From a virus (Duplodnaviria > Heunggongvirae > Uroviricota > Caudoviricetes): a DNA stretch of 55,951 bases. The stretch is from the IMG/VR virus record IMGVR_UViG_2690316248_000012, positions 1 to 55,951 of that record; one strand, 5' to 3'. The translations under genes and the position numbers were made by a program. Shown here piece by piece: positions 2,777 through 28,408 of this stretch. How positions within the stretch are numbered: the stretch's first letter is position 1; each line of letters opens with the position of its first letter. The notes below the pieces were generated by a model. That model was not told the DNA's origin. It did not search any database and saw only the letters and a list, made by a program, of their open reading frames with translations.

Positions 2777-2855
2777 TTGCCTGAAATTTAAGATGTTTAA
2801 AATCATGATGTTAGAAGCACTGTTTTTTAACGATGGCGACAAAATGGCGGCAGCG

Positions 2856-3107
2856 TCAAAGAGAGAGCGCCACCTGTCCTGATTTCATTGGATGCGGCTG
2901 AACTGGATTAGACTCTTTTGGTGTTGCAATCGAACGAACAAAAGTTTCATGGGTAACAAAAGTATGGCTGCAGTTAATGTTCTGGCACTGGTTATAACGC
3001 TCTTTGGTCAATGAAGATACCTGAAAACTGCTGCGAGTATGGGCGGCACTTCCACACAGTGGGCAAATCATCATTTTTCGAGTTCTCCCCATTTTTGCTA
3101 AATTCAC
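2856..3107 (-). CDS. ogr: Ogr/Delta-family zinc-finger late transcription activator
   Basis: 83 aa with CPLCGSAAH...CQNINCSHTF four-Cys pattern as in P2 Ogr; terminal position next to D as in P2. Confidence 0.8.
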   Translation of the reverse strand: MNLAKMGRTRKMMICPLCGSAAHTRSSFQVSSLTKERYNQCQNINCSHTFVTHETFVRSIATPKESNPVQPHPMKSGQVALSL

Positions 3108-3164
3108 AACAATGATACCGTATTATTCCATTTTGCAAACTTAAAAGTTCTCCATTGCGAAGAA

Positions 3165-7821: not shown

Positions 7822-8250
7822 CGTTGGCCCCGCTTCTCTGAATCGCTTTATACCGCCATTCCAGCACTTCGGTCAGCGCCATAACGTCAGTAACGGATGG
7901 CGGCCAGTGAAAGATGGTGGCGATATCAGCCACCAGATCGTCAACCGTCAGGCTGTCGGTAAACCGGCAAGCACCGACTTCTTCAACAAAAAAGTGACAA
8001 CCTCAACCGACATGGCAGTGAGATCTGCCGGGTCCATCTCTGCAATTTCCTGTGCAGTCAGTGCCGGACTGGAGATGCGGGGGATCACGGTCATCATCGC
8101 GTTCACATCCATATCCATAATGGCCTGCAGGCGTGTACCGCGCAGCGCACCGGACTGCGGTTTACGCAGCACAATTTCGGTAATTTCTGTTTTACCGCGC
8201 TTGATAGGGGTATCCAGTTGAATGGTCTTTTCAGTCTGCTTATCGCTCAT
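7814..8250 (-). CDS. gpE+E' frameshift product (programmed -1 frameshift at TTTTTTG)
   Basis: Hand translation: -1 slip at the T6G heptamer (plus coords about 7987-7993) opens a frame running to a TGA at 7814-7816, overlapping the T start codon; classic P2 E/E' arrangement. Confidence 0.6.
7948..8250 (-). CDS. E: tail assembly chaperone gpE
   Basis: 100 aa ORF immediately upstream of the tape measure gene; contains a TTTTTTG slippery site near its 3' end. Confidence 0.75.
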   Translation of the reverse strand: MSDKQTEKTIQLDTPIKRGKTEITEIVLRKPQSGALRGTRLQAIMDMDVNAMMTVIPRISSPALTAQEIAEMDPADLTAMSVEVVTFLLKKSVLAGLPTA

Positions 8251-8304
8251 TTTGTTGTCCTGTAAATTGGGTTCTGGCGCGGCATTCCGCGCCGTTCAGA
8301 TACA

Positions 8305-8820
8305 TCAGAGGCCGAGAGCGTTGCGGTGCGCTTCCATCAGGTCCACACCGTCCACAATTTCCACCATGTTGATAAGGTCCACTTCATAGAGCACCTCACC
8401 ATTGATGGTCAGCTTCGCGTAGCTGTTGGTACTGGTCACTTTGGTGGTGTTGCTTTCGCCCGTCTTCCACTCACCGGAATCCACTTCTTTGTGACGTCCA
8501 CGCACCACAAGCTCCACGGCCTGCACTTCCCCGGTATCGTCACGCTGGATAGAGCCGGTAAAGCGCAACTGGATGCCATCCACCGTGGCTTTGCCTATCT
8601 GCTTAAACAGCAGCAGTTCAGTACCACCAATGGAAAATTCTGTGTCCAGCGCACTGTCATCAAGCCCCAGATCCACATCCACTGCCCCCGGCATTCCGCC
8701 GCCGCGATACTTCTCATATTTGCGGGTGAATTTCGGCAGCGTCAGCGACTCAACGATCCCCTGCCAGTTGTTCCCGTCGTTAAACAGGTTCAGGTGTTTT
8801 AATTTGCGTGGTAAAGCCAT
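8305..8820 (-). CDS. FII: tail tube protein (gpFII-like)
   Basis: 171 aa; directly downstream of sheath gene as in P2. Confidence 0.8.
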   Translation of the reverse strand: MALPRKLKHLNLFNDGNNWQGIVESLTLPKFTRKYEKYRGGGMPGAVDVDLGLDDSALDTEFSIGGTELLLFKQIGKATVDGIQLRFTGSIQRDDTGEVQAVELVVRGRHKEVDSGEWKTGESNTTKVTSTNSYAKLTINGEVLYEVDLINMVEIVDGVDLMEAHRNALGL

Positions 8821-8829
8821 GTTGTCCCC

Positions 8830-10002
8830 TTACGCGCTGACCTGGCTGGCGAAATTCACCAGGTACTGATCGGTGATGCGCTGACGCAACATCAGGTTTT
8901 CAAGTGGCGGCACTGGCGTGTAGTCGTAGTCGATGGTGAGTTTTCCGGCTTTCAGAGTGTCTTTGTCGTTCACCGACTCATCCAGCCAGCAATCACCACC
9001 AATGAGATACCCCTGACTGACCAGGCTGCGCATTTTGGCGCGGATGCCCTCGATAATGTCGCGCGCCAGCGACGGGTTCAGCGGTTTGTCCACTGCCCAC
9101 ATGTGCGCTTCTGCCATTGTGTCCGTCAGCACCTGCGCCGTGCGGGTGTAGTTTTCGAAGGCAAAGAGCGGGTCATCACTCAGGCAGCGGGAACCCCAGA
9201 AGCGAAAACCGTCTTTGCGGATAAGGGTGGTGACGTCGTTCTGGTTCAGCAGTCCCGCATCGCTTGCCGGGTCCTGCAGATCCCAGAACACATCAGCAGA
9301 AATTCCGGTGACACCGTTAACGCCTACGTTGGACAGGCTTTTGTGCCATCCGGTCTGCTCGTCAATTTTGGCGCGCAGACCAAGCGCACGGGCGGTGGCA
9401 TAAGCCGTTGCTTCGGCATTCAGCACCGTGTCCCAGCCAGTAAAGTCGGGCCAGATCAGCATTCCTTCACGCTGACTGAAGTTTTCACGGTAAGTGATTG
9501 CTTCCTGCACCGTCTTGCAACCATACGCTGACAGGTAAGCAAATCCACGCAGGCTTTGCGCCACGCTCAGCAACTCAGTAGCTACCGCCTTCGTGTCGTG
9601 ACCTGGCACGCCGAGAATGCGCGGTTTAACGCCGAGCTGTGACTGGGCAGATAACAGGGCTTTCATGCCTGTTTTTTTACCTTCAGCAGTCACTGCGCCG
9701 ATGATATTGGTCGTGGTTTCTTCTTCCGTTTCACCCTGCGGCACACGCACAACAACGGTCACGGGTTTTGCCTGGTCAGCGATGGCATCCAGCGAACGGG
9801 CCAGCGTACCGGACTCGCCCGCTTTACCGCTGGCAGTCAGCACATCAGTGATCAGCACGGGTTTATTAAGAGGAAACATTTTTGCATCGGCATCATCGCC
9901 CGTGCAGACCATACCCACGATGGCGGTGCTCACCGTGGTAATGGATCGGGTGCCTTCGTTGACTTCAACAACGCGCACTCCGTGGTGGTAATCCTGAGCC
10001 AT
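8830..10002 (-). CDS. FI: contractile tail sheath protein (gpFI-like)
   Basis: 390 aa; size and position match P2 FI. Confidence 0.85.
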
Positions 10003-10078
10003 AGTGGCGAACCTCCTGATTGGATTAGGCTTCGCCCTATGTTGAAGTGATTGTGCCTGACAAACAGCTAAGCGCAGT

Positions 10079-10096
10079 TGTACCGTTATTCACACA
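10079..10096. promoter_or_regulatory. TGT-N12-ACA element upstream of FI (candidate Ogr-dependent late promoter box)
   Basis: tgt accgttattcac aca read directly; centred about 85 bp upstream of the FI start codon; P2 late promoters carry this dyad near -55. Confidence 0.4.
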
Positions 10097-10144
10097 AAAT
10101 GACGGTATTTGTCTGCTTTCAGGGATAATCAAAATAAAGCTGAT

Positions 10145-10717
10145 TCAGGGAGATTCATTGCTCTTATTTGCCGGAAATTTTCTATAAATGGTAGAAACGC
10201 CTACATCAAAAATCAGTGCAATACGCTGTCTTGATTCTCCGGCCTCGAGTAAACGCCCAATCTGTGCCCACTGTTCGGTAGTCAACTTAGGACGGCGTCC
10301 ACCTACTCTGCCTTTAGCACGAGCTGCAGCCAGCCCTGCCCTGGTACGTTCAACTATCAGTTCGCGTTCCATTTCAGCCAGGGCACCCATGACATGAAAA
10401 AAGAAACTGCCCATTGGGGTACTGGTATCAATACTGTCAGTCAGACTTCGGAAATTCACGCCGCGCTGGCGCAACTCTTCTATCAGCGTAACAAGATGCC
10501 GCATACTGCGCCCCAACCTGTCCAGCTTCCAGACAACCAGTGTGTCACCTGCCGATAGTGTCCTGAGCAGTTTTTTAAGCCCCGGTCTGTCGGACTTAGT
10601 GCCACTGATTTTGTCCTCAAAAATCCGCTCACATCCCGCGCAGTTCAGCGCACTACGTTGCAAATCGGTGTTCTGGTCATTTGTTGACACGCGTACATAG
10701 CCAATAAGCATGATCAT
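10145..10717 (-). CDS. serine DNA invertase (Gin/Pin/Hin/Cin family)
   Basis: 190 aa; N-terminal GYVRVSTNDQ catalytic serine motif, C-terminal HTH; adjacent to the invertible segment. Confidence 0.9.
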   Translation of the reverse strand: MIMLIGYVRVSTNDQNTDLQRSALNCAGCERIFEDKISGTKSDRPGLKKLLRTLSAGDTLVVWKLDRLGRSMRHLVTLIEELRQRGVNFRSLTDSIDTSTPMGSFFFHVMGALAEMERELIVERTRAGLAAARAKGRVGGRRPKLTTEQWAQIGRLLEAGESRQRIALIFDVGVSTIYRKFPANKSNESP

Positions 10718-10797
10718 CTCCTTGAATAAAAACCGGGGATGATGCCAGTTAGTCGTAATCGCTGCATTTTCTTAAACGTTGGTTTAGGAGAAGGCTC

Positions 10798-11194
10798 TGC
10801 ATTACCCGTAGGTGTGCCTGTTCCGTGGCCTTCAGTCACACCGCCAACAGGCTGGCTGAAATGCAACGGTGCAGCTTTTTCTGCCGAAGAGTATCCGGAA
10901 CTGGCAAAAGTTTATCCGACAAATAAATTGCCAGATTTACGCGGCGAATTCATTCGTGGGTGGGATGATGGAAGAGGAATTGATTCAGGACGGACTCTCC
11001 TGTCTGCTCAGGACGGGAGCATTGAGGCACACGGCCATGATTACAATGGGGTCATCTATACTTCTAGCGGTCCTTCCTGGGCTAATACGACGGATGCGGG
11101 ACACCGGGCATATTCGGGATTTACATCATCATATGGCGGAAGCGAAACCCGTCCACGAAATATTGCATTTAACTATATCGTAAGGGCTGCATAA
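10798..11194 (+). CDS. alternative tail-fibre C-terminal variable segment (no own start; expressed only after inversion)
   Basis: Frame reads GLGEGSALPVGVPVPWP...NIAFNYIVRAA, homologous to the C-terminus of the fibre at 54497-55951; begins at the crossover site. Confidence 0.6.
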
Positions 11195-11796
11195 TGGATA
11201 ACGCCGTATTAAATAGCGAGATTATTGCCACGAAGGCGGGGAATATTACCGTCTATAACTATGATGGTAAAACTCGGGAATATATTTCTACTTCAAATGA
11301 ATATCTTGCCATTGGTGTCGGTATCCCTGCATATTCCTGTTTAGATTCACCAGTTACATGTAAAGCTGGTTATGCAATCTGCCGTTCTGCAGATTTTAAC
11401 TCATGGGAATATGTGCCAGACCATCGCGGTGAAATCGTTTTTAGCACCGAAACAGGAGAATCAAAAGAAATCACAGCACCAGGTGATTACCCTGAAAATA
11501 CAACCACTATCGCCCCGTTAACGCCATACGATGAATGGGATGGTGAGAAATGGGTGACAGATACTGAGGCACAGCATAGCGCCACACTAGACGCGGCAGA
11601 AGCACAGCGTCAGTCACTGATTGATACTGCAATGGCTTCCATTAGTCTGATTCAACTGAAATTGCAGGCCGGGCGGAAGCTGACGCAGACAGAAAACACC
11701 CGACTTAACGCTGTGCTGGATTACATTGATGCGGTGACGGCAACAGATACCAGCACAGCGCCGGACGTCATCTGGCCTGAACTGCCGGAGGCGTAG
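11194..11796 (+). CDS. tail fibre assembly protein (alternative-orientation chaperone)
   Basis: 200 aa; C-terminal TATDTSTAPDVIWPELPE motif shared with the opposed chaperone; position after the variable fibre segment. Confidence 0.7.
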   Translation: MDNAVLNSEIIATKAGNITVYNYDGKTREYISTSNEYLAIGVGIPAYSCLDSPVTCKAGYAICRSADFNSWEYVPDHRGEIVFSTETGESKEITAPGDYPENTTTIAPLTPYDEWDGEKWVTDTEAQHSATLDAAEAQRQSLIDTAMASISLIQLKLQAGRKLTQTENTRLNAVLDYIDAVTATDTSTAPDVIWPELPEA

Positions 11797-12211
11797 GCCA
11801 TTCAATATCTGGAGCACTGGAGGTATCAACCAGTTCCAGTGCGTCCAGATAATCCAGCCACAAATTATATTGCGCCAGTTCCTCACCTTTCAGGCGACCA
11901 ATCGCTGCTTTACCAGGCCATTGCTTACTGTATATGTATTCGTTGACCTGATTAATCAATTGCTGCTTTTCCAGTTCGGCTGCGGCAATTTGTTCCTCAT
12001 GAGTTGGCGGTGGAATTTCCCCCCAGGTGGGAAGGCCATCATCACCCGCGATGCGTACTTTCCCTTGCAACGTTCTGTCTTCAATAAATTCCAGGTAAGT
12101 GTCATATGTCACTTCGACAATATCAGCAAGTTCCCATCCGGCCTGTTCATATTTCGCCACATCATTTTTAGCGAAAAAACTATTATTTGAGGCGCTATAA
12201 ACCATTTCCAT
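11768..12211 (-). CDS. G: tail fibre assembly protein (gpG-like)
   Basis: 147 aa directly downstream of H; C-terminal LVDTSSAPDIEWPTPP motif. Confidence 0.75.
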   Translation of the reverse strand: MEMVYSASNNSFFAKNDVAKYEQAGWELADIVEVTYDTYLEFIEDRTLQGKVRIAGDDGLPTWGEIPPPTHEEQIAAAELEKQQLINQVNEYIYSKQWPGKAAIGRLKGEELAQYNLWLDYLDALELVDTSSAPDIEWPTPPAVQAR

Positions 12212-12212
12212 A

Positions 12213-13619
12213 TTAATACCCTACTGCAATATAAAAAACTGATTCACCAGCGTCCTGAGCACCTGTCCCCGGAATTCCAGACCAGGCTTTGTTAATGAAT
12301 GCAAAACTGGTATTACTCAGATCAGATGCTCTGTACATCGGGCTGAACATCCAGTAGTTGGCTCCATATGTTTGTCCGAAAACAATGCCATAGCACTGAT
12401 TTGTAAATGGCGTAGAAAATAATTTTCCACCATTACCAGCGATAGCACCGAATCGCATCTGGAATCCATTAGGGAAATTAACGCCACCCGATGCGGAAGA
12501 CCAGAAAGACATATCCGGTATCTGATTATCTCCTGTGCCCACATCCCTTTTCGCCGCTTCTCCTAAACCAAGGTATGCGAGAAGACCAGCAACATCCTTT
12601 CCACTCAAATTAGTCAGCGTATTGTCCAGCGGTTGTTTACCTGCTAGCGCATTAAGCATTGTCGTGGCAAAGTTCGGGTCATTCCCCAGCGCCGCCGCCA
12701 GTTCGTTCAATGTATCCAGTGCCGCAGGTGCAGACCCCACCATTGCTGCAATCGCCGATTTCACAAAAGCCGTAGTGGCAATCTGTGTATTGTTAACCGA
12801 CTGTGCGGCAGTAGGGGCTGTTGGCGTTCCGGTGAGTGCCGGACTCGACAGCGGCGCTTTCAGTGCCAGCGCATTGTTAATGGTGGTACTGAATTTCGGA
12901 TCATTGTTAATGGCTGCGGCTATTTCTTTTAGCGTGTCCAGCGTGGCTGGCGCACCATTAATAAGGGCCGTCAGTGCCGCCTGAACAAACGCGGTGGTCG
13001 CAAGTTGCGTGGTATTATTCCCCGCCGCTGGCGTCGGCGCTTTGGGGGTTCCGGTAAATATCGGGCTGGCTTTTGGCGCATACTGTGAATGTGGGTCCGC
13101 TGCGGCAAGGTGTTTTGCCATTTGGTCATCCACATACACCTTCAGCTCCAGTGCCTTATCATCCACATACTTGCGAGTTGCCAGTACTACAGCAGGGTCG
13201 ATTTTCAGGGTGATATTGTCCGTACTGCTGGTAATCAGCACCATGCGCACGGTCTGGGTACGCCCGCTGCCTTCAGCCAGTTGCGGCTTATAGCTTTCCG
13301 GGCAGTTTCCCACGGCAATCAATACCCCGGACTCATCAAACAGGCCCACTTCACGTATCCACCAACCACCCTCATTTTCAGGGATCACCTGTTCAGCAAT
13401 AATCTGGCTGCTGTTCTGCGGGTCGATATAGAGCATATTCAGCGCAGCCCGGCGTTTCTCATTTACCAATGCTGTCTGCTTGGCGTCCGGCGTTGGCAAT
13501 GTTCCGCCGCCATCGCCGACCGCCATATGGGTAATTTTTAAAGGCACACCGAGCGCGGCGGCGCTGGCGAGTTTCGCCGCGCCAATATCCGTCAGCAGGG
13601 TATAAAATTTTGTGCTCAT
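12213..13619 (-). CDS. H: tail fibre protein (gpH-like), C-terminus encoded within the invertible segment
   Basis: 468 aa; repeated TQLATTAFV / TPKAPT motifs; crossover sequence falls near codon 348 (YLGLGE). Confidence 0.8.
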   Translation of the reverse strand: MSTKFYTLLTDIGAAKLASAAALGVPLKITHMAVGDGGGTLPTPDAKQTALVNEKRRAALNMLYIDPQNSSQIIAEQVIPENEGGWWIREVGLFDESGVLIAVGNCPESYKPQLAEGSGRTQTVRMVLITSSTDNITLKIDPAVVLATRKYVDDKALELKVYVDDQMAKHLAAADPHSQYAPKASPIFTGTPKAPTPAAGNNTTQLATTAFVQAALTALINGAPATLDTLKEIAAAINNDPKFSTTINNALALKAPLSSPALTGTPTAPTAAQSVNNTQIATTAFVKSAIAAMVGSAPAALDTLNELAAALGNDPNFATTMLNALAGKQPLDNTLTNLSGKDVAGLLAYLGLGEAAKRDVGTGDNQIPDMSFWSSASGGVNFPNGFQMRFGAIAGNGGKLFSTPFTNQCYGIVFGQTYGANYWMFSPMYRASDLSNTSFAFINKAWSGIPGTGAQDAGESVFYIAVGY

Positions 13620-14221
13620 GGATTCACTCTCATTGTGTCAATAACATGGACCGCTCCGCCTTCATGCGCGGTGCCGCCGGAAATAATTGTTTCGTTGATA
13701 TACGGATAGATCGTGATTTCTTCGCCAAGATAGCTGGCAGCTCCCACCCAATGCGGGCCGCTGGTCTGCAGGTTGATGGACATGCCGATCATGTGACGGC
13801 TACATGGTTTGGCATCGCTTATCAGTCGCTCAAGTTCCAGATAGGTATCTTCAGTGATGCCCTGGTCCTGCACGCCGATATCCAGACGAAACGTGCCCGG
13901 AGTCTCTCCGGTCTGCCACCACTCAATAATGCGGATCAGAAAGCCGAACGGCTCCACCACCCGCCGCACGGCACTGGTGGTCCCTTTATGCTGATGAATA
14001 TAAAAAGCATCCTTCACCACCTGGCGCTTGACGCTTTCTGTCCAGCCCTCGTCCCAGCGATCCACAGAGAACGCCCAGGCGAGATAAGGCAGGAAACTGA
14101 CCGGACAGGTTGCCGGATTCCACAAGTCACGCAGCGGCACCTGCAGATCAGAAATCCCGCTACAGGTCTGCGCCAGTCGGCGCTCCAGTGAAGTTGAACC
14201 CAGTGGCAGCAGACTATTCAT
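13616..14221 (-). CDS. I: baseplate protein gpI-like
   Basis: 201 aa; position between J and H. Confidence 0.75.
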   Translation of the reverse strand: MNSLLPLGSTSLERRLAQTCSGISDLQVPLRDLWNPATCPVSFLPYLAWAFSVDRWDEGWTESVKRQVVKDAFYIHQHKGTTSAVRRVVEPFGFLIRIIEWWQTGETPGTFRLDIGVQDQGITEDTYLELERLISDAKPCSRHMIGMSINLQTSGPHWVGAASYLGEEITIYPYINETIISGGTAHEGGAVHVIDTMRVNP

Positions 14222-15122
14222 CCGTTCCTCCGTTGGTTACGCTCCACTGCGTACATGATGCGGCCTGTGTTTTGTTCAGGACCACATCAGCCAGCGGTGA
14301 AGCCAGCTCCACACGTTGAACCCCCTCAACATGCAGCGCGGCAAAAATGGCACTACGGCGAATATCCCGACCAAGCCGCGTCTGACTGGCGATGTACTTC
14401 TGCAGGCTGGCTTTTGCCGCTGCCATTACCGGCTCCGCTTCCGGTCCCGGATAGAGAAAAATGGTGGCTTCCACACGGTACGGGATGATTTCTGCGCTGC
14501 GAACCGTCAGACGGTCAGCCACCGGGCGGACGTTCTCACTGTTCAGGGCTTTCTCCACCACATCCAGCAAGTCTTTTTCTGCTGTTCCGTCGCCTTCACG
14601 GCTCAGGACAGTAAGCACCACCTCTGCAGGAGCCGGACTGGTTGCACTGGCATCCGCCACCCGACCGTCGGCGCTTCGGGCATGAAATTCATAAGCTGCA
14701 GTTGGTCCCGCAACTGAAAGCCCCTCAAAGGCTGCAGGCACACGCAGGCGTAACGCTTCATCGCTTTCCATCACTGCTGCAACGGGCGGCACAGCGTCAT
14801 TATCAGCAGGTGTCACCGTCAGGCGTTTCACGTTGTAGTTGGCAGCGAGCTGGTCAAGATCGCCGCCCATCGCGTAAGCCACCATCACCGCCTGCGCGGC
14901 TTCGTTAATGCGTTGGCGCAGAAGCAACTCACGGTAAGTATTCTCCTGCAACAATTTGGTGACGGGTTCAGATTCCAGTTCCAGCGTGCGGATCACTGCT
15001 TCCTGCTCATCTTTCGGATGAAGCGCCACAAATTCTGCCTTGCGTTCGGTAAGCAGCGTCTCAAAGTCCGGCACATCCACAATCTGCGGCGCAGGCAACT
15101 GCGAAAGGTCAATCACTGCCAT
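14214..15122 (-). CDS. J: baseplate protein gpJ-like
   Basis: ORF track gives 315 aa; start trimmed to the MAVIDLSQLP methionine (about 302 aa, P2 gpJ size). Confidence 0.75.
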   Translation of the reverse strand: MAVIDLSQLPAPQIVDVPDFETLLTERKAEFVALHPKDEQEAVIRTLELESEPVTKLLQENTYRELLLRQRINEAAQAVMVAYAMGGDLDQLAANYNVKRLTVTPADNDAVPPVAAVMESDEALRLRVPAAFEGLSVAGPTAAYEFHARSADGRVADASATSPAPAEVVLTVLSREGDGTAEKDLLDVVEKALNSENVRPVADRLTVRSAEIIPYRVEATIFLYPGPEAEPVMAAAKASLQKYIASQTRLGRDIRRSAIFAALHVEGVQRVELASPLADVVLNKTQAASCTQWSVTNGGTDE

Positions 15123-15468
15123 TCTCTGCTCCTGTCGATACGGAAAGGGACACAGGTACACCGTTATTCCGCCGCCCGGTCAGCTCCACCACCATAGAAC
15201 CGTCAAAGTTGCTGTTGATGGTGATGGAATCCAGCGTCAGCCGTGGCTCCCAGCGACTCAGCGCCACATACACTGCCGACATGACCTGCAGGCGTAACGC
15301 CGGATTTTGTGGCTGGTCTATCAGTGCCGACAGCAGGGAACCATATTCCCGGCGGGCAATGCGGCTACCCTGCGGTGTCAGCAGAATGTCCCGCACCGAC
15401 TGGCGCAGATGGTCAATATCAGTAATAGCTTTGCCGCTGGTATTGTTCATCCCGCTATAAAGCGTCAT
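15109..15468 (-). CDS. W: baseplate wedge protein gpW-like (GPW/gp25 family)
   Basis: 119 aa; position between V and J. Confidence 0.75.
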   Translation of the reverse strand: MTLYSGMNNTSGKAITDIDHLRQSVRDILLTPQGSRIARREYGSLLSALIDQPQNPALRLQVMSAVYVALSRWEPRLTLDSITINSNFDGSMVVELTGRRNNGVPVSLSVSTGAENGSD

Positions 15469-16043
15469 ACCGGGCCTCCGGTTGTGTCGCCGCCTTTCAG
15501 GACGCCAGTATGCTGATGTGCATCAACCACAATTCCGTTAGAACTCATTGCACCGCCGCCCTGGGTAACACCACCATTGATCACTACTTCGCTGTTAATA
15601 CGCGTGCGGTCAGCCTCCAGCACAAACTCTCTGGTTTTCAGGGTGATGTTGTCAGCAGCCTCAATGACCATGGATTTGATGCCCCTGACATACCAGCGCC
15701 CGGTGGCTGGTTCGTATTCAAACCAGCCACCGTCAGGATGTTCTGTCACGCAGGCTTCCGCCGACGTCGACGGTGGTGCGAACTGATTCGAATAGACAGC
15801 GGGCAGCGCAAAGGCGGTTTCCAGATTTCCTCCCAGACTCAGCAGCACCACCTGCTCACCTTCCGATGGTCGCCACCATGTGCGGGCATTACCCGCGCGC
15901 AGCGTCAGCCAGTTAATCCAGTTGGTTTCAAGGTCGCCCGTTTTCACCCGACAAAGCCAGTTTTCCTTGTCCACTTCAGTGACTACCCCTGTGCGGATCA
16001 GGTTGGTGATAAGGCGCATGATTTCTGTGAGTTGTGTATTCAT
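15465..16043 (-). CDS. V: baseplate spike/assembly protein gpV-like
   Basis: Start trimmed to MNTQLTEIMRL; alignable by eye to P2 gpV; paralogous to 51831-52427. Confidence 0.8.
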   Translation of the reverse strand: MNTQLTEIMRLITNLIRTGVVTEVDKENWLCRVKTGDLETNWINWLTLRAGNARTWWRPSEGEQVVLLSLGGNLETAFALPAVYSNQFAPPSTSAEACVTEHPDGGWFEYEPATGRWYVRGIKSMVIEAADNITLKTREFVLEADRTRINSEVVINGGVTQGGGAMSSNGIVVDAHQHTGVLKGGDTTGGPV

Positions 16044-16090
16044 AAGATTATTTTTCCATGCTTTACACAACCTCTTCAAACAGCTTATTT

Positions 16091-16108
16091 TGTATAAAAG
16101 AAGATACA
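16091..16108. promoter_or_regulatory. TGT-N12-ACA element upstream of V (candidate Ogr-dependent late promoter box)
   Basis: tgt ataaaagaagat aca read directly; about 50-65 bp upstream of the V start codon; spacing to ATG is shorter than expected. Confidence 0.3.
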
Positions 16109-16136
16109 ATTTTCTTTGAAAAGAAATAAACCCTCT

Positions 16137-16185
16137 GGTTAGAGGTTAGAGGTTAGAGGTTAGAGGTTAGAGGTTAGAGGTTAGT
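16137..16185. repeat. tandem heptanucleotide repeat (GGTTAGA) x6 plus one imperfect unit
   Basis: ggttaga repeated head-to-tail from 16137; lies between the Old-like gene stop and the V promoter region. Confidence 0.9.
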
Positions 16186-16218
16186 AGAATATCGCAGGGT
16201 TTCCCCTGCGACCATTTA

Positions 16219-18177
16219 TCAATTAAACTTTACAGGTTTATCACTTATAAAAAAATTTTCAATTTTGGCAATCCACTCTGGCCTTTTCCGCTCATTTCGC
16301 TCACAGATTGAAATATATTCCTTTGAAAAATCAAACTTAATTCCTTCACGGTCAAAAAAAGCATCAAGCGTTTTTTTGTTCTTGGGTGACAAATCCATCG
16401 CAGCAAACGATGAATGTCTTTCATCTATCATAACATTACTATTAGGCAGCAATGCCTGAAGCTCAGGAAAACGTGAAGAAAATGATGTTAAAGCCTCTAT
16501 AAACGATACAGGATTAAGACAATCCTCTATTTCTGTTGCAGGAGAAACTGGATTGGAAGAAATATCAACCAACTTCACTGAATCACCTACACTAACAATT
16601 CGCTTACAAACAACATGCGGCATAACTGGGGTATCATATGACACCAACTCTGAATCTGTATCGGTTAGTAAGAACACTTTTCCTTTGAGGTCTTTTTTGA
16701 ACTCTTCATAAGAAGCTTCTAAATGCTTAAATATTTTTTTAACTTCACTAGCTCCCCCTACAGGCACAATCCTTAGCCTTTTATTTTCTACCAAGTCCTT
16801 TAGATAATGCGAAAGATATATTTTTTCTGTAGTACCCTCACAAATCAACCAATTGTAAGGTTTCTCAGCCAAACAGCTAGATATTATGGATTGTATAAGG
16901 TCATTTACACTTTTTATTTTTATATCAAATGGCATACCCGGGGAAGAGGTTTTTACTTTCTTCCTGACTTCTTCTCTATAACTGGCAAGATCATATAATT
17001 CAAAATGATGAGTTGAATCTGTTTTAAGGATAGTTGTGGTACATCCATTTTCGACGGTTGGAAGATAGCCATACCAATGTGAAGTAAATATTAATTGTTC
17101 ACATATACCACTAATAGAATAGAGCTTTTCAAATTGTTCAAAACATGCAGACATATGAAGAGAACATTCTGGCTCATCAATTCCAATAATCAGATTATCG
17201 CCATTTTCTCTATGATTGGTAAGAAACCCATATGCAATATCCATTATTGCACGTTGCTTCTCCCCTGAACTTAGCGAGCTAATTTCAATCCAACCTGAAT
17301 TCTGCTTTTTATTTAATTTCCTAACTTTGAAGAATGCTTCGATAATCAAATTATAAACATCTTTCTTTTTTAATCGCGATTGTCTCTCGCCAGATGTTCT
17401 ATAACCATATTCTTCAAGCTCCTCTTCAACACCATCCAGAAATTTGGCAAGCCCTGTATTGATTTGACTTATGGTTCTATCAGATATTCTATCTTTAATT
17501 ATCTGCTCTAAAGACTCACCCATCAACTTTTGTACTTCACTTGTTTCTAGCTTCGTAAACGATTCAGAGTCTATATCCTTTGGAATATATATATATTCAT
17601 ACTTATGGCGGACATGATGTAATAAATACCCAAAGTGCTTACTAAGCAACTCGCTCGAAACTTTATTATCGGGATTATCAACCTCCAAAAGTCGACATAA
17701 ACTCTTCCCATTAAGAATCGAAATACTTACATCACCATCTTTCTCGACACCCAGAGGGATCAAAAAATAATCTTGGAGATTTAAATTTCTTTTTAATTTG
17801 TTAATATGTTCAAAAAACGTATTAATTATATTTCGTGTTGTTGGCGTCAATGTAACATCAGCATTACTATTGCTATATTCTAATACTAATTGCGTTAAGA
17901 TTTCAGCTTTAGCATGATGATCTTCATGTAATTCCTCTCGCTTTATAAGATATAAAGGAACAATATGTGGAGAAGGTCTGTCACTGGAGGTTCTTTTAAA
18001 TGAAGAATTAATATTCCATGGTTTGTTATTAATAAACGAATCTAAAGCCTCAAGAACAGAACTTTTGCCAATTCCATTGTTACCAACAATTCCACAAAAC
18101 TGACTTCCAGAAGATAACGGTATGTAATGATTTCCGTTGTATGTTTTAAAATACCTTAAAAAAATCCCTACTATCAT
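16219..18177 (-). CDS. old: OLD-family overcoming-lysogenization-defect nuclease (ABC-type ATPase + TOPRIM), P2 Old-like
   Basis: 652 aa; Walker A GNNGIGKSS, signature LSSGEKQ, Walker B IGIDEPECSLH, H-loop FTSHW, TOPRIM Glu in LICEGTTE and DxD in LLTDTDSE; same motif order as P2 Old; AT-rich gene. Confidence 0.8.
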   Translation of the reverse strand: MIVGIFLRYFKTYNGNHYIPLSSGSQFCGIVGNNGIGKSSVLEALDSFINNKPWNINSSFKRTSSDRPSPHIVPLYLIKREELHEDHHAKAEILTQLVLEYSNSNADVTLTPTTRNIINTFFEHINKLKRNLNLQDYFLIPLGVEKDGDVSISILNGKSLCRLLEVDNPDNKVSSELLSKHFGYLLHHVRHKYEYIYIPKDIDSESFTKLETSEVQKLMGESLEQIIKDRISDRTISQINTGLAKFLDGVEEELEEYGYRTSGERQSRLKKKDVYNLIIEAFFKVRKLNKKQNSGWIEISSLSSGEKQRAIMDIAYGFLTNHRENGDNLIIGIDEPECSLHMSACFEQFEKLYSISGICEQLIFTSHWYGYLPTVENGCTTTILKTDSTHHFELYDLASYREEVRKKVKTSSPGMPFDIKIKSVNDLIQSIISSCLAEKPYNWLICEGTTEKIYLSHYLKDLVENKRLRIVPVGGASEVKKIFKHLEASYEEFKKDLKGKVFLLTDTDSELVSYDTPVMPHVVCKRIVSVGDSVKLVDISSNPVSPATEIEDCLNPVSFIEALTSFSSRFPELQALLPNSNVMIDERHSSFAAMDLSPKNKKTLDAFFDREGIKFDFSKEYISICERNERKRPEWIAKIENFFISDKPVKFN

Positions 18178-18322
18178 AAAATTAGCTCCATTAGTGAGGT
18201 GAAGACATTAAAGTACAACAAGATTAATCTCAAAAAAAGAGCTTTATAGTATATTCAAGCAAGGTATCTTATGTAGAACGATAAAGTCTCCCTCCACTAA
18301 TTCTCTTAACCCACTATTTACT

Positions 18323-18760
18323 TTAGCGTTTTAAGTAAACACCCAAGTTCAAGTTACTAATATCCTTAGTAAATCCTAAAAGCCTTCTCTCAGGGTACTG
18401 TACTTTTAAACCTCTTCGACTAACACGGTCACGCAGTCCATAGTGGTGTACACAGGCGATGCGCTGGACTTTTCCATCAAAATACACGCAGGCATAATCC
18501 GCTGTGGCGGCAGTTTTCAGGTATTTATTAGTGCGCAATTTGGCGAACATCTGGCGTTTGATGCGCCCCTTCTTACTGCGGGCTGCTACCCGGCGCGGCT
18601 CAAAGCCGCTGCCATCAGGGTTAAGCTGCAGCCTGATATTCTTCTGCTGATTGCGGCGCAACTCCTGCGCCAGTTCCCGCATCATACGCTGGCGTGTGGC
18701 AGGCTCCAGATTCGCCAGCAAGGCCGCCAGCCACTCATCCACCTTCTGCAGTTCAGCCAC
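18323..18760 (-). CDS. S: tail completion protein gpS-like
   Basis: 145 aa; position after R and before V as in P2. Confidence 0.65.
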   Translation of the reverse strand: MAELQKVDEWLAALLANLEPATRQRMMRELAQELRRNQQKNIRLQLNPDGSGFEPRRVAARSKKGRIKRQMFAKLRTNKYLKTAATADYACVYFDGKVQRIACVHHYGLRDRVSRRGLKVQYPERRLLGFTKDISNLNLGVYLKR

Positions 18761-19184
18761 GTTTCACCGTCCACATTTCTTCAGGTTCATCAGGTTCCGC
18801 TATAGCTTCAACGCTCGACACACTGCCGTCAGTGCTGACCAGCACACGCTCCGTCAGTTGCAGGTTAAGGCTGATATCACAGACATCGTTGCGCAGAATA
18901 TCCACCTCAAAGGTGAATAACTTTTCCCGTAACGCCGGATTATTGATGGCATCGGGCTGGTTATCCCGCAGCCACAGCAAAACCGGGGCCATCAGCAGAT
19001 TCTGGTCGCCGCTGAAATCCTCAATCACCACGTTCAGGGTGTAGCGGTACTCCCATGACATGGAGCTGGCCCCCGTGGCAACCAGCGAACCGTTATCCAC
19101 AAACAGATGCAGTTTGTCCGGGTTATTGCGGACATAAGGCACCGCCTTATTGAGGGCGTGGCGCAGGGATTGTGGTTTGTTCAC
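18753..19184 (-). CDS. R: tail completion protein gpR-like
   Basis: KPQSLRHALNKAV aligns with the P2 gpR N-terminus; start set to the GTG before it (ORF track start 19205). Confidence 0.65.
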   Translation of the reverse strand: MNKPQSLRHALNKAVPYVRNNPDKLHLFVDNGSLVATGASSMSWEYRYTLNVVIEDFSGDQNLLMAPVLLWLRDNQPDAINNPALREKLFTFEVDILRNDVCDISLNLQLTERVLVSTDGSVSSVEAIAEPDEPEEMWTVKRG

Positions 19185-19437
19185 TGTTTCGCTCCTGACA
19201 CGCAATAATCATGTCCACTTTGTCTGCACAGACCGCCCAGGCGGCCTCCGTTTCATCCAACAACGCGTTCAGATCACCGTTAATGCGCGGCGCTGCCTGA
19301 TCCAGCCGACACGGCGTCACTCGCGGACAACCACTGACGGTAAGCTGCACCTCCGGTGAGCGTGGGGCGTTCCCGCAGCCGGATAATGTCAGCAGGCAAA
19401 GGAGTATCAGCCCAGCGGCGTAAATCCTCGTTCTCAC
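19147..19437 (-). CDS. lysC: o-spanin (LysC/Rz1-like outer-membrane lipoprotein)
   Basis: 96 aa; signal peptide with lipobox LTLSGC; overlaps the lysB 3' end in another frame. Confidence 0.75.
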   Translation of the reverse strand: MRTRIYAAGLILLCLLTLSGCGNAPRSPEVQLTVSGCPRVTPCRLDQAAPRINGDLNALLDETEAAWAVCADKVDMIIACQERNSEQTTIPAPRPQ

Positions 19438-19708
19438 GTTTCAGTTCCTCAATCCGGTGTTGTCGTTGTCTCAGCAGTGCGCTGGTCTGTTCTGCGTCGG
19501 CATAGAGCCGCGCCTGCTCCCGGTTGTTGGTTTCAGCCAGAATGGACAGGCTGATAAGCTGGCTGTTGCTCTTTGCCAGTGCCTGGCTTTTGCTCTGCAG
19601 CTCGTCTGCCTGCGTGCTAATGGTCTGGCTGGCATCAGCCAGCCGCCACGTCTGCCAGCCCAGCGCCGCCAGTAATAACGCCAGCACAACCAGCAGCAAC
19701 CGGTTCAT
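19280..19708 (-). CDS. lysB: i-spanin (LysB/Rz-like)
   Basis: 142 aa; N-terminal transmembrane anchor then coiled coil; o-spanin gene overlaps in another frame. Confidence 0.75.
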   Translation of the reverse strand: MNRLLLVVLALLLAALGWQTWRLADASQTISTQADELQSKSQALAKSNSQLISLSILAETNNREQARLYADAEQTSALLRQRQHRIEELKRENEDLRRWADTPLPADIIRLRERPTLTGGAAYRQWLSASDAVSAGSGSAAH

Positions 19709-20001
19709 GCTGCTACCTGTTGCGCCATCTGATTACGGGTGATCCAGAAGGCAATAACGGTCAGTAGATAAAACACCAGGGTAATAGCCCACCCCGTCCA
19801 GGCGAGACTTACAACAATCAGCAATCGCATCACCCAACTGGTAAATACGTTTTCTTTTCGGGTAATTGTCTTCAGCAAAGATGCCCTTAACTCCTGCCAG
19901 AGCGGTCCATTCTTAATTAACGCAGCCAGTGCTACCGGAATTACCGCCCATGTCAGCAAACAGGCTACCCAAACGCCGGACGCTGCCAGTTGATCAGACA
20001 T
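19705..20001 (-). CDS. LysA-like/holin-like small membrane protein
   Basis: 98 aa with two to three hydrophobic helices; immediately upstream of the spanins; shorter than P2 LysA. Confidence 0.5.
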   Translation of the reverse strand: MSDQLAASGVWVACLLTWAVIPVALAALIKNGPLWQELRASLLKTITRKENVFTSWVMRLLIVVSLAWTGWAITLVFYLLTVIAFWITRNQMAQQVAA

Positions 20002-22144: not shown

Positions 22145-22526
22145 TATTTTTCAGGTCATTTTCCGCAAACAGGATTGCTGTTCTGGCACTCCGCAATCGT
22201 GCTTTCGCATTTTTTTCTTCACGTTCAAGGCCAGCGACAGATTCACGAAGAGCTTCTCGCTTTTTATGAAGACGATTAATTTCATGCACGATATTTTCAG
22301 CATTACGGGCACGGTCAAGGATAAATTCAAATGGATCCAGTACAGCCCCGCACAGTGAACAGGTCAGCGTCCGGTTGATTTCAGAGACTGTTGTCCGGGC
22401 ATGCCGGCACAGGTTTTGTTCGTTATTCTTTCGTTCAGAAATAACCACGTTCAGCAGTTTTTTGGCTTCTGCATCAGGAGCTGGCTGAAGCAAATGAATA
22501 ATGTTATCGCTGTCGTTATCCATTAT
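22116..22526 (-). CDS. hypothetical protein with Cys-rich segment and coiled coil
   Basis: Start trimmed to MDNDSDN; CRHARTTVSEINRTLTCSLCG segment then heptad-rich C-terminus. Confidence 0.4.
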   Translation of the reverse strand: MMDNDSDNIIHLLQPAPDAEAKKLLNVVISERKNNEQNLCRHARTTVSEINRTLTCSLCGAVLDPFEFILDRARNAENIVHEINRLHKKREALRESVAGLEREEKNAKARLRSARTAILFAENDLKNIELEKKYNG

Positions 22527-23241
22527 ATGCCTCCAGTTTCTGTTGTTCCTGCCCACTGACCGGTCGGTGCAGTCTGACGTTCTGCCCTTCTCGAAACCCC
22601 GCATAGCGCGAGGCGTCGCCATTGCGGCTTCTTCCCGGTTTACGCGCCCTGGTGGTTTGCGTCTGCGGGTATTTATGTTCCAGCCACTGCTGCATCAGTT
22701 CACGCTCATCATCGGTCAGGGCAAAGGACTGTATTTCACTGATAACGGCCAGCACCCAGCCTTCGGCAAACTGGTCTCCACGGCTGGTGCGGGTGGCGGT
22801 TTTTATTCTTTTGTTCTGTGCACTGATATACTGCTGACGCGCCTTTTTCAGCTGACGGGCCAGCACTTCCCAGGTGTATGCAGCCAGTGCCGCACGTTCC
22901 CGGTTGCCGTAGAACCCCACAGACGGATGCGTGCCGGGGTGAATGATGGAGTTAACACCAAATACCTCGCGGATGATGTTCATCAGGCCCAGCATGTAGC
23001 GCGGTGGACGGAGACTGCCTGTCGGCCAGTAGTGACTGATGGTTTCATCAATATCACTCATAGCAATGTCGGAATGTGTGATGCCGTGAACATCCATCAG
23101 TTTACGGGCTCGGCGCAGTGCCAGAGCGGCCTCGTGCGGGTTGCCGGATGCGGCCAGCGCCAGCAACTTTTTCAGTTTCTCAATGTGTTTATTCTGGTCT
23201 GTCATTGTTCTGTATCTCCGGTATTTTTCTGCCGTTTCCAT
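22516..23241 (-). CDS. hypothetical early protein (possibly DUF2786-like N-terminus)
   Basis: 241 aa; KLKKLLALAASGNPHEAALALRRARKLM helix pair; early accessory region. Confidence 0.4.
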   Translation of the reverse strand: METAEKYRRYRTMTDQNKHIEKLKKLLALAASGNPHEAALALRRARKLMDVHGITHSDIAMSDIDETISHYWPTGSLRPPRYMLGLMNIIREVFGVNSIIHPGTHPSVGFYGNRERAALAAYTWEVLARQLKKARQQYISAQNKRIKTATRTSRGDQFAEGWVLAVISEIQSFALTDDERELMQQWLEHKYPQTQTTRARKPGRSRNGDASRYAGFREGQNVRLHRPVSGQEQQKLEAYNG

Positions 23242-24298: not shown

Positions 24299-24829
24299 TT
24301 ACTGCACATCCTGCTCAAAAGGAATTATTGAAAAATCCTCAATGTCGCTTTTAATGGAAATACCGGGAATATTTTTCACGGCCTCTTTTTCATTCAGGAT
24401 AGCGTCTTTATTTATTTCCTCTTTTACACGAATAAAGCGCTCAAGCCCCAGACGTCTCAGTAATTCAATAACATTATCCGCCCCACGGATACTGACTGAT
24501 GGCGGACGGTTTCGCCACTGCACCTCGCCGGTGGTGAGGTTAGCGAACTTCACCTTCCCGTTGCCGGTCAGTTCATCACGGTGTGCCTCACACCATGTCT
24601 GAATACCGGACTGCAGTTCGGCCATGCGTTTTTTCAGGCTCTCGGTGAGCGGGGCATAACGTGCGGTGATATCGCCAATGGCGTCATTCATTTCTGTTTC
24701 AGCCCTGACCAGTTCACGTTGTGCGTCACCGAGTAGTCTGATTCCCTCAATGACCTCTTCACGTGTCCCCGGCACCCAGAGTGCTGCTGCGGCCTTGATA
24801 CGTTTTGCACCTTTTGTACTTTTTGCCAT
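24299..24829 (-). CDS. gam: host-nuclease inhibitor Gam (Mu Gam family, DNA-end binding)
   Basis: 176 aa; strongly alignable by eye to Mu Gam (ETEMNDAI, WCEAHRDELT, RPPSVSIRG, GIEDFSIIPFEQ). Confidence 0.9.
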   Translation of the reverse strand: MAKSTKGAKRIKAAAALWVPGTREEVIEGIRLLGDAQRELVRAETEMNDAIGDITARYAPLTESLKKRMAELQSGIQTWCEAHRDELTGNGKVKFANLTTGEVQWRNRPPSVSIRGADNVIELLRRLGLERFIRVKEEINKDAILNEKEAVKNIPGISIKSDIEDFSIIPFEQDVQ

Positions 24830-25128: not shown

Positions 25129-26322
25129 TTAAACCCCTTTGACAACGTCAGCGTTGACCTGTGGAACCCCGATTTCAGCGGCCAGATTCATGGCGGCTAT
25201 TACCAGGTTACTGACGGCCAGCGGATACAGCAGGCTGACCATATTTTTACGGTGACTTCCCGGATTGCTCAGGCGGGCACGTATGGCATCCACTGCACCG
25301 GCGTCCATAATGTCCGTCAGCTGTTTACCGGCCCGTTGCAGTTTGAACGTCAGAAATTCTTCAAGGTTATTGTCCAGAGGCAGAAGTTCGACCACCTCAC
25401 AGCGCTGAACGACTTCACGGACTTCCATATTGCGTTCAGACAGTTTTGTCGCCAGTTCCGGCTGGCCAATCAGCACGATGGACAGCAGTTTTTTGAAACC
25501 GGACTCCAGCTCAAAAAAGCGTTTGAGGTGTTTCAGTGTCGGAATGGGCAGACTGTGGGCCTCCTCAATCACCAGAACGTGGCTGAACCCCGCCTGGCTG
25601 CTGTCTTTCAGGACGCGATGCAACTGGCGAAAGCGGGCGTCCTGACTGCGTCTGATGCTTTCCAGTGGTGCGATGGTACTGATAATGGCTTCGGCAATCG
25701 CTGCTGCCTTCAGGGTTTTCCCTTTCACATCGTTGTCTTCCATAGCGATGATGTATGGCTCGATAACAATTACCGGCGCATTCTCGCGGTTGATACGTTC
25801 AGTCAGGTCGCGGCGCAGCGTGGATTTACCCGCACCGGACTCACCGATGACGGCCATAAACCCACCATGACGGGCTGTCTGGTACAACGCCTCACGCACG
25901 TAGCGAATGTCCGGGGTGGTGAACACATCATCAGAACCCTGCATGGCTTCATCGGCGAACGGGTCACGGAAAAGACCAAACGCTTTTTTGGTTGCTGGAA
26001 ATAACACCTGTTTTTTGAGTAACATATTCTCTTCCTCACTGAGGCTCGTTTTATCTGTGGTACCCGCTGTACGGGGCGTGGCTGCGCCCTGTACAGCATC
26101 AAAACTCTTCGTTGTATCAATCCCCTGACTTTCCAGCCAGGACGCAAGACGCCGGCGCACTTCTCCGGGGCTGGTGCGGGGCCACGCGTTATGATTCACA
26201 ATCTGGGCCAGCGTGGCCTCAGAAACATCGACAGCTCTCGCCACCACCGCCTGTGGAATACGGGCCTCTTTCAGTTGCTGCTTCAGTACCAGCATGTTTC
26301 CCTCCTCAGTTGCCGTTAACAA
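25129..26322 (-). CDS. transposition ATPase (MuB/TniB-like AAA+ protein)
   Basis: 397 aa; Walker A GESGAGKST, Walker B VLVIEEAHSL; N-terminal HTH; directly downstream of the transposase. Confidence 0.8.
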   Translation of the reverse strand: MLTATEEGNMLVLKQQLKEARIPQAVVARAVDVSEATLAQIVNHNAWPRTSPGEVRRRLASWLESQGIDTTKSFDAVQGAATPRTAGTTDKTSLSEEENMLLKKQVLFPATKKAFGLFRDPFADEAMQGSDDVFTTPDIRYVREALYQTARHGGFMAVIGESGAGKSTLRRDLTERINRENAPVIVIEPYIIAMEDNDVKGKTLKAAAIAEAIISTIAPLESIRRSQDARFRQLHRVLKDSSQAGFSHVLVIEEAHSLPIPTLKHLKRFFELESGFKKLLSIVLIGQPELATKLSERNMEVREVVQRCEVVELLPLDNNLEEFLTFKLQRAGKQLTDIMDAGAVDAIRARLSNPGSHRKNMVSLLYPLAVSNLVIAAMNLAAEIGVPQVNADVVKGV

Positions 26323-28075: not shown

Positions 28076-28090
28076 AGCTTGTCTTCCCTG

Positions 28091-28408
28091 TTATCCGATT
28101 CTGGCGGCAATTTTTCTGGCGAGGTCGCACAGTGTTTCGCCATCGCAGGTTTTCACCACGGTATTTACCGGTTGCGGTGCAACTACCGGGCGTAATGCTG
28201 ACTGATTCTGCAGACGTCTTATCTGCTGCATCAGCATCACCTCCATCGTCAGTACAAACGGGTGCGTCTCCTGTGCGGGTACGCAGATTTCACCGGAAGG
28301 GGTCACCACGCGGAAACCCTGCACCATCTCCGGCAGCAGATTACACAGTGCGTGCCCCAGTGCCTCCGGGCTGTCCATCAGGGTATTTTGTGTGTTATTC
28401 GTATTCAT
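28091..28408 (-). CDS. hypothetical protein
   Basis: 105 aa, immediately upstream of transposase. Confidence 0.4.
   Translation of the reverse strand: MNTNNTQNTLMDSPEALGHALCNLLPEMVQGFRVVTPSGEICVPAQETHPFVLTMEVMLMQQIRRLQNQSALRPVVAPQPVNTVVKTCDGETLCDLARKIAARIG

Follow-up and report, generated by a model that had tools for sequence, protein, structure and literature searches.

A stand-alone OLD-type ATPase-TOPRIM gene as candidate defence cargo in the S-V site of a P2-like prophage

The OLD family supplies effectors of Gabija, some retrons and PARIS, and also includes lone ('class 1') proteins, which are its least understood branch. To our knowledge, only P2 Old, Vc OLD and YbjD among the lone OLDs have any phenotype attached. 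The metal A (Glu, DxD) and metal B (Glu+4, [S/T/D]xE) ligands of the TOPRIM nuclease have been defined for Ts, Bp and P2 OLD, and class 1 has been described by a degenerate ABC signature, a length shorter than class 2 and, in Ts OLD, the lack of a C-terminal helical domain, the domain that in Bp OLD holds the catalytic K562 (PMC7049728). The substrates of lone OLDs already diverge: P2 Old, a tRNase activated by ATP, cuts through anticodon stems (PMC12445682) and is switched on by a tetramer-to-dimer transition after sensing DNA structures (bioRxiv 10.64898/2026.07.10.737580), and Vc OLD is a nickase that causes abortive infection and requires its Walker A/B and DxD residues (PMC12392090); GajA and Ts OLD, like Vc OLD, act on DNA. 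Here we analyse an OLD-family ATPase-TOPRIM gene (16219..18177, minus strand, 652 amino acids) lying between the tail-completion gene S and the baseplate spike gene V of a P2-like prophage, within a stretch of 55,951 nucleotides from a virus of the Caudoviricetes (IMG/VR record IMGVR_UViG_2690316248_000012; 'the window' hereafter means this whole stretch).

The product of the OLD-type gene is most likely a prophage-borne abortive-infection nuclease. Our preferred reading, to which we assign a probability of about 0.62, is that of a single-gene defence cassette in the S-V hotspot of a 186/P2-type prophage, encoding a stand-alone OLD enzyme that is switched by ATP and acts through a nuclease effector in abortive infection or exclusion. 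It is supported by the domain architecture, the conserved ATPase and metal residues, purifying selection, the lack of a conserved partner, and the presence of defence cargo at the same site in sister prophages.

The OLD-type gene, its family and its site

In RefSeq, the gene product (WP_000635034.1) is labelled 'AAA family ATPase' and nothing more. Judged from its sequence, it joins an ABC-type ATPase and an OLD-like TOPRIM nuclease in one chain. The Pfam families AAA_15 (E 2.3e-17, residues 7-367) and AAA_21 (E 5e-9) matched above their gathering thresholds, as did OLD-like_TOPRIM (PF20469; 28.9 bits against a cut-off of 23.2, residues 443-508). The ATPase region (residues 1-420; 16918..18177, minus strand) contains a Walker A motif (G32-x-x-G35-x-G37-K38-S39), Q216, an ABC signature (LSSGEKQ, 302-308), a Walker B motif (D334-E335) and an H-loop (H367). 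The TOPRIM core (residues 437-555; 16513..16869, minus strand), delimited by the PF20469 match and by invariant columns, holds E447, E/D451, G474-G475, D506-x-D508 and T548-E549-x-E551, and the order and spacing of these motifs map its invariant residues onto the putative metal A and metal B ligands. It is followed by a C-terminal helical region (residues 556-652; 16222..16512, minus strand) with invariant K614, Y621 and W635. K614, K422 and R526 are all conserved and might each supply the catalytic Lys/Arg known from OLD nucleases, and K614 is, by analogy, the candidate for that role within the helical region.

The AlphaFold model (pLDDT 76.5) comprises an ABC head, a poorly resolved helical insertion, the TOPRIM core and the C-terminal helical region, which is modelled confidently (pLDDT 84-91). 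The insertion (residues ~205-300; 17278..17565, minus strand), made of predicted helices, is a candidate dimerisation domain by analogy with Ts OLD and GajA. The top Foldseek matches were full-length OLDs, namely GajA (4.6e-13), the retron-Eco8 OLD (2.5e-12) and Ts OLD (2.9e-10), with AriA at 9e-6. Sequence searches of the PDB with the single protein or with a 22-sequence profile returned weak AriA and SMC matches only; Ts OLD and GajA came within reach, marginally, once a 72-sequence profile was used (Ts OLD only at Walker A, E 1.3e-3). An earlier reading made from the letters alone (the sequence-only reading) had proposed an OLD-family ATPase-TOPRIM protein with a full motif set, and Pfam, Foldseek and hhalign agree with it, the profile search that it suggested as a check having placed AAA_15, AAA_21 and PF20469 all above their cut-offs.

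Among 1.84 billion representative proteins, only 471 matched at E <= 1e-3 and 250 at E <= 1e-30, nearly all of them full-length (625-670 residues), and the lineage amounts to some 250 clusters at 50% identity. Full-length homologues (28-91% identity) occur in several phyla; members at 35-51% identity were found in Gamma- and Betaproteobacteria, Bacteroidota, Cyanobacteria, Neisseria gonorrhoeae, Pasteurellaceae, Acinetobacter and a myxobacterium. In an alignment of 72 homologues (28-73% identity), N34, K38, S303, D334, E335, P336, H367, W368, K422, E447, Y454, D506, D508, E551 and K614 do not vary at all, the residue at position 451 is E or D throughout, and T548 is nearly invariant. PF20469 was matched by 46 of the 72 members, DUF4435 by none, and DUF2813, a domain that we take to be typical of YbjD, by 25 (the window protein not among them). 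The family forms a discrete, deep-branching and uncharacterised clade. Full-length homologues at 40-43% identity are also carried by host-restricted pathogens, namely N. gonorrhoeae DSM 9188 and Pasteurellaceae (three loci); such carriers are unexpected, the homologues being otherwise found mostly in environmental bacteria. The neighbourhoods of these loci formed part of the neighbour clustering described below.

In a Cronobacter P2-like prophage, the cassette occupies the equivalent site in the same orientation and encodes a protein 91% identical to that of the window. Comparison of the E. coli and Cronobacter copies gave a ratio of non-synonymous to synonymous substitution rates (dN/dS) of 0.061 at dS 0.89: the OLD-type gene is under strong purifying selection, and with its full-length homologues in several phyla the ORF lies far beyond chance. 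Within E. coli, WP_000635034.1 is annotated at the locus in strain SF-468, in a UK blood-culture isolate and in a Swedish isolate from cerebrospinal fluid.

Neither the cassette nor the family's neighbourhoods point to a partner gene. Within the cassette there is no second open reading frame (ORF) of at least 20 codons with support and no room for a partner; between S and V there is no reverse transcriptase ORF and no retron RNA; and Rfam gave no RNA family in the cassette, its sole match being rliE (E 0.8; 23 bits against a gathering score of 90). The gene that follows is gpV, with no GajB/UvrD-like helicase downstream. When all ORFs within 4 kb were clustered at 62 homologous loci, no neighbour family occurred at more than three of them and no helicase family recurred. 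The sequence-only reading's view of a gene without a partner therefore holds. The sole recurrent neighbours, at three pseudomonad loci, are hsdM and hsdS, located 54-98 nt upstream, and hsdR, whose start overlaps the stop of the homologue. At these Stutzerimonas/Pseudomonas loci, the homologue is inserted between hsdS and hsdR of type I restriction-modification (R-M) operons, presumably the kind of site where PrrC-type latent nucleases sit; the arrangement hints at a link to restriction or anti-restriction. Individual contexts were inspected in Sulfurimonas, Halopseudomonas, Stutzerimonas, Atlantibacter, Cronobacter, Pantoea and Enterobacter, and the other contexts encountered were an island with SIR2 and an integrase, an island with an integrase and insertion sequences (IS), an Rhs/immunity cluster and plain chromosomal sites.

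In the window, the OLD-type gene lies among P2-type tail genes, R (P2_Phage_GpR), S, V, W and J, all on its own strand. The site is bounded on the left by the conserved gpS gene (18323..18760, minus strand, 145 amino acids; Phage_tail_S, E 1.2e-36) and on the right by the conserved gpV gene (15465..16043, minus strand; Phage_base_V and Apex, RefSeq coding sequence), whose true start is the ATG at 16043 rather than a TTG at 16109. As the sequence-only reading had noticed, this is AT-rich cargo: the GC content is 0.31-0.38 across ~16050-18400 compared with 0.54-0.59 in the tail genes on either side; for the OLD-type gene alone it is 0.337, and 0.26 at third codon positions (GC3). Alignment with an empty S-V site, whose homology ends at 18417 (inside S, ~31 codons before its stop) and restarts at 16044 (one base before the V start), defines an exchanged module of ~2.37 kb (16045-18416), slightly larger than the insertion of roughly 2.2 kb first described.

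The same reading correctly placed the gene away from the tin/old position; its statement that S and V are adjacent in P2 was mistaken. In the P2 record (AF063097), S (8915-9367) is followed by a terminator, by orf30 (9439-10224, on the opposite strand) and by the activator site of pV, and V starts only at 10308. P2 Orf30 is a non-essential protein of 261 residues with no Pfam or PADLOC match. Together with the TO and Z regions, orf30 is one of three foreign-gene sites of P2-like phages (PMC3091744), and phage R18C carries yet another ORF at this position (PMC6823313). Since orf30 is a known variable region, the S-V location is a known cargo site and not an unusual place of insertion. Recent hotspot surveys have focused on the A-Q and Z/fun sites (PMC9122126; bioRxiv 2024.10.15.618418), and minor defence hotspots 'within the late genes' are mentioned in a 2026 preprint.

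The flanks were matched in 1,066 of 5,426 complete E. coli genomes, only 14 of which carry the OLD-type gene. In an evenly spaced sample of the flank-matching records, the S-V site was empty in ~27 records, about half of the sample, with S and V 68 nt apart. The filled sites held hypothetical proteins, DUF6216, DUF6602 and FRG proteins, a PARIS pair, TIR and GmrSD-type genes, and IS elements. PADLOC recognised the PARIS pair (AriA 6e-40, AriB 2e-24), and a GmrSD_N/Schlafen protein matched its defence models (NsnA 3e-23). Such varied and defence-rich cargo argues that S-V is a real cargo and defence hotspot, and the PARIS, TIR and GmrSD-type genes show this orf30 site as a working one. Nor did syntenic prophages carry a conserved tail gene of the same size here, the finding that the sequence-only reading had named as telling against itself; the site is variable or empty. 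Orientation differs among cargoes, PARIS and GmrSD being antisense to the late genes, TIR and the OLD-type gene co-directional with them. The last ~25 residues of gpS and the sequence upstream of V differ with the type of cargo, so that cassette exchange would seem to involve recombination within S and at the start of V, not at an attachment site between the genes. What stays constant, in the window as well as in four further S-V variants with otherwise unrelated surroundings, is a TGT-N12-ACA dyad placed 64-65 nt ahead of the V start codon.

Proposed function and alternative explanations

In the preferred reading, the N-terminal SMC/Rad50-like ABC ATPase with its helical insertion would probably serve as sensor and switch, and the C-terminal two-metal TOPRIM nuclease as effector. 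Lysogens would express the protein from a promoter within the cassette and keep it as an inactive oligomer. When a competing phage infects, the ATP-dependent conformation of the protein would change and the TOPRIM site would be unmasked, and the ensuing cleavage of nucleic acid would either arrest the infected cell or block phage replication. As for the substrate, analogy would favour tRNA slightly over the nicking or degradation of DNA (roughly 55:45), because P2 Old and PARIS AriB, the phage-borne ATPase/TOPRIM systems whose in vivo targets are known, both cut tRNA.

Several observations weigh against this reading. The helical insertion is modelled poorly, with pLDDT <50 over residues 207-227 and 257-299. 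A scan for promoters gave 9 hits where 8.9 were expected, which is uninformative in AT-rich DNA. Running in the direction of the late tail operons with no terminator ahead of it, the gene could be a late-expressed phage gene instead of one for lysogenic conversion. Because the TOPRIM domain of YbjD is reported to be dispensable for its anti-phage phenotypes (PMC13261556), nuclease action is not guaranteed either. Some homologues have ordinary neighbourhoods without defence genes, as in Pantoea (a lone chromosomal gene between the phn operon and mscS) and Sulfurimonas (adjoining aconitase). In 50,697 deposited phage genomes, tblastn with the protein as query detected no homologue, no PADLOC v2 model recognised it as a system (the best matches being to generic AAA_15-type models), and the clade to which it belongs is uncharacterised.

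Among the rival explanations, a fused PARIS-like system, in which an AriA-type ATPase would sense an anti-restriction protein of a phage (e.g. Ocr) and release or activate the covalently attached TOPRIM domain to cut tRNA (grouping the protein with 'class 4' instead of P2 Old), appears unlikely to us. It draws on real resemblances in the ATPase: AriA was the best PDB sequence match of the family profile (1.2e-7, from the signature to the H-loop), hhalign aligned the family to an E. coli AriA with 88.6% probability, and the canonical LSSGEKQ recalls the LSSGERQ of AriA, class 1 OLDs being described as degenerate here. That similarity is nevertheless confined to ~70 residues common to many ABC ATPases, and the nuclease half tells differently, with DUF4435 in 0/72 members against an OLD-like TOPRIM in 46/72, an hhalign probability of 1.1% for the family against AriB, and a match to the PADLOC fused AriAB model limited to 47 residues; Foldseek also prefers full-length OLDs (1e-10 to 1e-13) over AriA (9e-6). 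Genomic position would suit PARIS, which occupies the identical S-V site in other E. coli, as would the three homologues within type I R-M operons, where a stop overlapping the hsdR start is the position expected of an anti-restriction back-up. Fused AriAB proteins are moreover known (PMC9122126).

The gene might instead be a late-expressed nuclease of the lytic cycle, reached by read-through of the S operon, which would degrade host or competitor nucleic acid or process DNA during P2-type development; we regard this as improbable. Its orientation is that of S and V, an arrangement unlike that of the P2 cargo genes orf30, fun, tin and old, which are all antisense to the late genes, and shared with the TIR cargo. 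By RNA folding, the stretch from S to the gene lacks any terminator-like structure (z = -0.03), and two hairpins lie beyond the gene (z = -3.57 for the whole 113-nt stretch folded, 16110-16222). Against such a role, roughly half of the sister prophages sampled have an empty S-V site, so that the gene is dispensable for the phage; most of its homologues are not in prophages but stand singly on chromosomes or within R-M and integrase islands, in several phyla; and a conserved non-coding block upstream suggests a promoter of its own. In the window itself, a Mu-like insertion separates the late promoter pO from the gene, whose ORF is still intact. The least probable of the explanations considered, and in our view a rather remote one, is that of an inert hitch-hiker, horizontally acquired AT-rich DNA that is silenced (e.g. 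by H-NS) and currently without function in E. coli. The base composition (GC 0.34, GC3 0.26 against ~0.55 in the flanks) and the rarity of the gene would fit, as would the chance-level sigma-70-like hits upstream, which leave the promoter putative, and the annotation in carrier genome H9 of two adjacent 'AAA family ATPase' coding sequences, which may represent a split gene. The low dN/dS, the invariance of all catalytic residues, the annotation of WP_000635034.1 in SF-468 and two further strains examined, and a full length of ~640-655 residues kept across phyla argue against it.

A defence role for the OLD-type gene would extend the study of lone OLDs to a conserved multi-phylum clade of ~645-residue proteins with a complete catalytic set and no partner, here in a naturally delimited cassette of ~2.4 kb that can be cloned. 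It raises the questions of whether a stand-alone OLD of a third lineage suffices for defence by itself, what is cut and what activates the enzyme.

Non-coding elements of the cassette and state of the prophage

Between S and the OLD-type gene lies an intergenic region of 145 nt (18178..18322, minus strand), which contains a putative cassette promoter and a ribosome-binding site (GGAG, 8 nt upstream of the ATG start), and in which a block at ~18185-18255 is conserved between E. coli and Cronobacter. It is preceded by the cargo-linked variant 3' end of S (18323..18416, minus strand), i.e. its last ~31 codons, as delimited by the end of empty-site homology at 18417. The shortened S was also considered as a frameshift and this was rejected, the gene being in frame with the Cronobacter version and ending three codons earlier.

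Directly after the stop codon of the OLD-type gene, RNA folding predicts a hairpin with a 9-bp stem and a GAAA loop (16191..16212, minus strand), which is conserved in Cronobacter. A second hairpin (CCTCT/AGAGG) followed by a U-rich tract (16122..16145, minus strand) is likewise terminator-like. Between the gene's terminator hairpin and the V promoter there is a microsatellite, (CCTCTAA)x6.9 on the gene's strand (16137..16184, minus strand; TRF). Its unit resembles an anti-Shine-Dalgarno sequence in the sense RNA, and its final copy doubles as the 5' arm of the CCTCT/AGAGG hairpin. This variable-number tandem repeat has 5, 6 or 9 full copies among E. coli strains that encode an identical protein, and Cronobacter has at this position a hexamer array, (CCTCTG)n, of over a dozen copies. 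The TGT-N12-ACA dyad (16091..16108, minus strand; 65 nt before the V ATG) is a candidate Ogr/B-type activator box of the late promoter pV that travels inside the exchanged module, and P2 annotates an activator binding site at the equivalent position.

The upstream block, the hairpin, the CCTCT-based microsatellite and the V promoter box are conserved with Cronobacter despite near-saturated synonymous sites (dS 0.89). This non-coding conservation suggests that transcription would start from a cassette-borne promoter and, in an intact prophage, could also reach the gene by read-through from the late S operon.

According to k-mer comparison, the window is identical to E. coli SF-468 at 1-10793 and 12557-19990; statements on head genes, the TO region and the integrase of SF-468 apply to that strain and not to the window. 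From 19990/19991, inside a lysA-like gene, to its end at 55951, the window consists of a Mu-like/BcepMu-like transposable prophage that starts with TGATCAG. Its genes include a DUF2786 gene (22516-23241), a Gam-like gene (about 24299-24829), an ExeA/MuB-like gene (25129-26322) and a DDE transposase gene (26306-28075), all on the minus strand, with late genes on the plus strand from about 33 kb. The 19990/19991 junction was found in no complete E. coli genome, and the end of the Mu-like element abuts mdfA, ptsP, gcl, rstB or kefF elsewhere. The P2-like prophage of the window is cut off from the late promoter pO as well as from its head genes and is probably defective; here, the OLD-type gene can therefore rely only on its own putative promoter.

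A tail-fibre segment (10779-12574) is inverted with respect to SF-468 at 99.94% identity. It contains alternative genes for tail-fibre assembly as well as the 3' part of the tail-fibre gene, and adjoins a serine recombinase/invertase gene (10145-10711, minus strand; Resolvase and HTH_7, E 8e-53). This segment is an invertible host-range switch caught in two states. In the intact sister prophage of SF-468 (NZ_CP012625.1, positions 27081-29041 of the extracted locus L011), the tin/old (A-Q) region holds overlapping genes for a hypothetical protein and an S1-family peptidase, with a further hypothetical gene nearby; this two-gene cassette is possibly a second defence cassette.

Comparison with known OLD-type systems

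The sequence-only reading likened the protein to P2 Old. Both are prophage-borne single genes of P2-type phages, both match AAA_15, AAA_21 and OLD-like_TOPRIM, and the order of their motifs, an ABC ATPase followed by TOPRIM, is equal. The two were aligned by hhalign with 88% probability over 222 columns that include the signature, Walker B, H-loop and TOPRIM Glu, with E398/E402 of P2 Old corresponding to E447/E451 of the window protein. Beyond motif order, the likeness was overstated. BLASTP found just 30% identity over 79 residues, and the PADLOC Old model, which scores P2 Old at 1e-214, matched the window protein at 2.4e-11 over part of its length. The GajA models of PADLOC hit P2 Old over most of its length (1e-20 to 1e-32) and the window protein only at Walker A, a calibration that places the latter outside the cluster joining P2 Old, GajA and the retron OLDs. 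The window protein has a canonical ABC signature and P2 Old a degenerate one, the DxD and metal B motifs are 43 residues apart compared with 86, and ~100 residues follow the metal B motif compared with ~43. The locus differs as well: P2 Old lies at A-Q (tin/old), antisense to the late genes, and the window gene at S-V, co-directional with them. As far as these alignments tell, the relationship to P2 Old is real but distant.

By its context, the window gene falls within class 1, being a single gene with no UvrD-like helicase, no reverse transcriptase or non-coding RNA and no separate TOPRIM partner, and to this extent the class 1 label of the sequence-only reading stands. It departs from the class in its canonical conserved signature, its 652 residues and its helical region at 556-652, although the class 1 traits describe the class and do not formally define it, and it has no close sequence relationship to P2 Old or Ts OLD. 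In signature, length and possession of a C-terminal helical domain with an invariant Lys it resembles class 2, and yet it is a member neither of class 2 (GajA) nor of class 3 (retron type I-B). The likeness to GajA and Bp OLD lies in the helical region after the TOPRIM core, K614 being invariant in the part that corresponds to that of the Bp OLD K562; overall identity is ~13%, and no GajB/UvrD-like helicase occurs in the window or at the 62 homologous loci.

PARIS is often carried by mobile elements. With it, the window protein shares the logic of an ATPase plus a TOPRIM nuclease and the S-V hotspot, and by sequence the nearest relatives of its ATPase are AriA and PtuA-type ATPases. The window protein, in contrast, is one polypeptide with an OLD-like TOPRIM domain and not DUF4435, so that it does not belong to PARIS or class 4. 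Vc OLD and E. coli YbjD/OldB are, as here, lone OLD genes, with anti-phage phenotypes (PMC12392090; PMC13261556). Compared by published residue numbers only, K48, D313 and D468/D470 of Vc OLD are spaced differently from K38, D334 and D506/D508 of the window protein. P2 orf30 shares with the OLD-type gene the S-V position and the character of non-essential, horizontally acquired, low-GC cargo; it encodes an unrelated protein and lies on the opposite strand.

It is tempting, if doubtful, to see in the family a distinct and so far unclassified OLD-type ATPase-TOPRIM lineage, effectively a further 'class'. Equally tentative is a reading of this lineage as an AriA-like canonical ATPase joined to a class-2-like nuclease half with a putative catalytic Lys, and working alone. 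Were the lineage distinct, it might have its own trigger, such as the anti-restriction proteins suggested by the hsdS-hsdR embedding, and its own substrate, and it would represent a new single-gene defence system overlooked by current detection tools. Taken against the systems described to date, the OLD-type gene of the window is a good candidate for a defence gene of a known family in a known, under-studied hotspot, and not a new kind of system.

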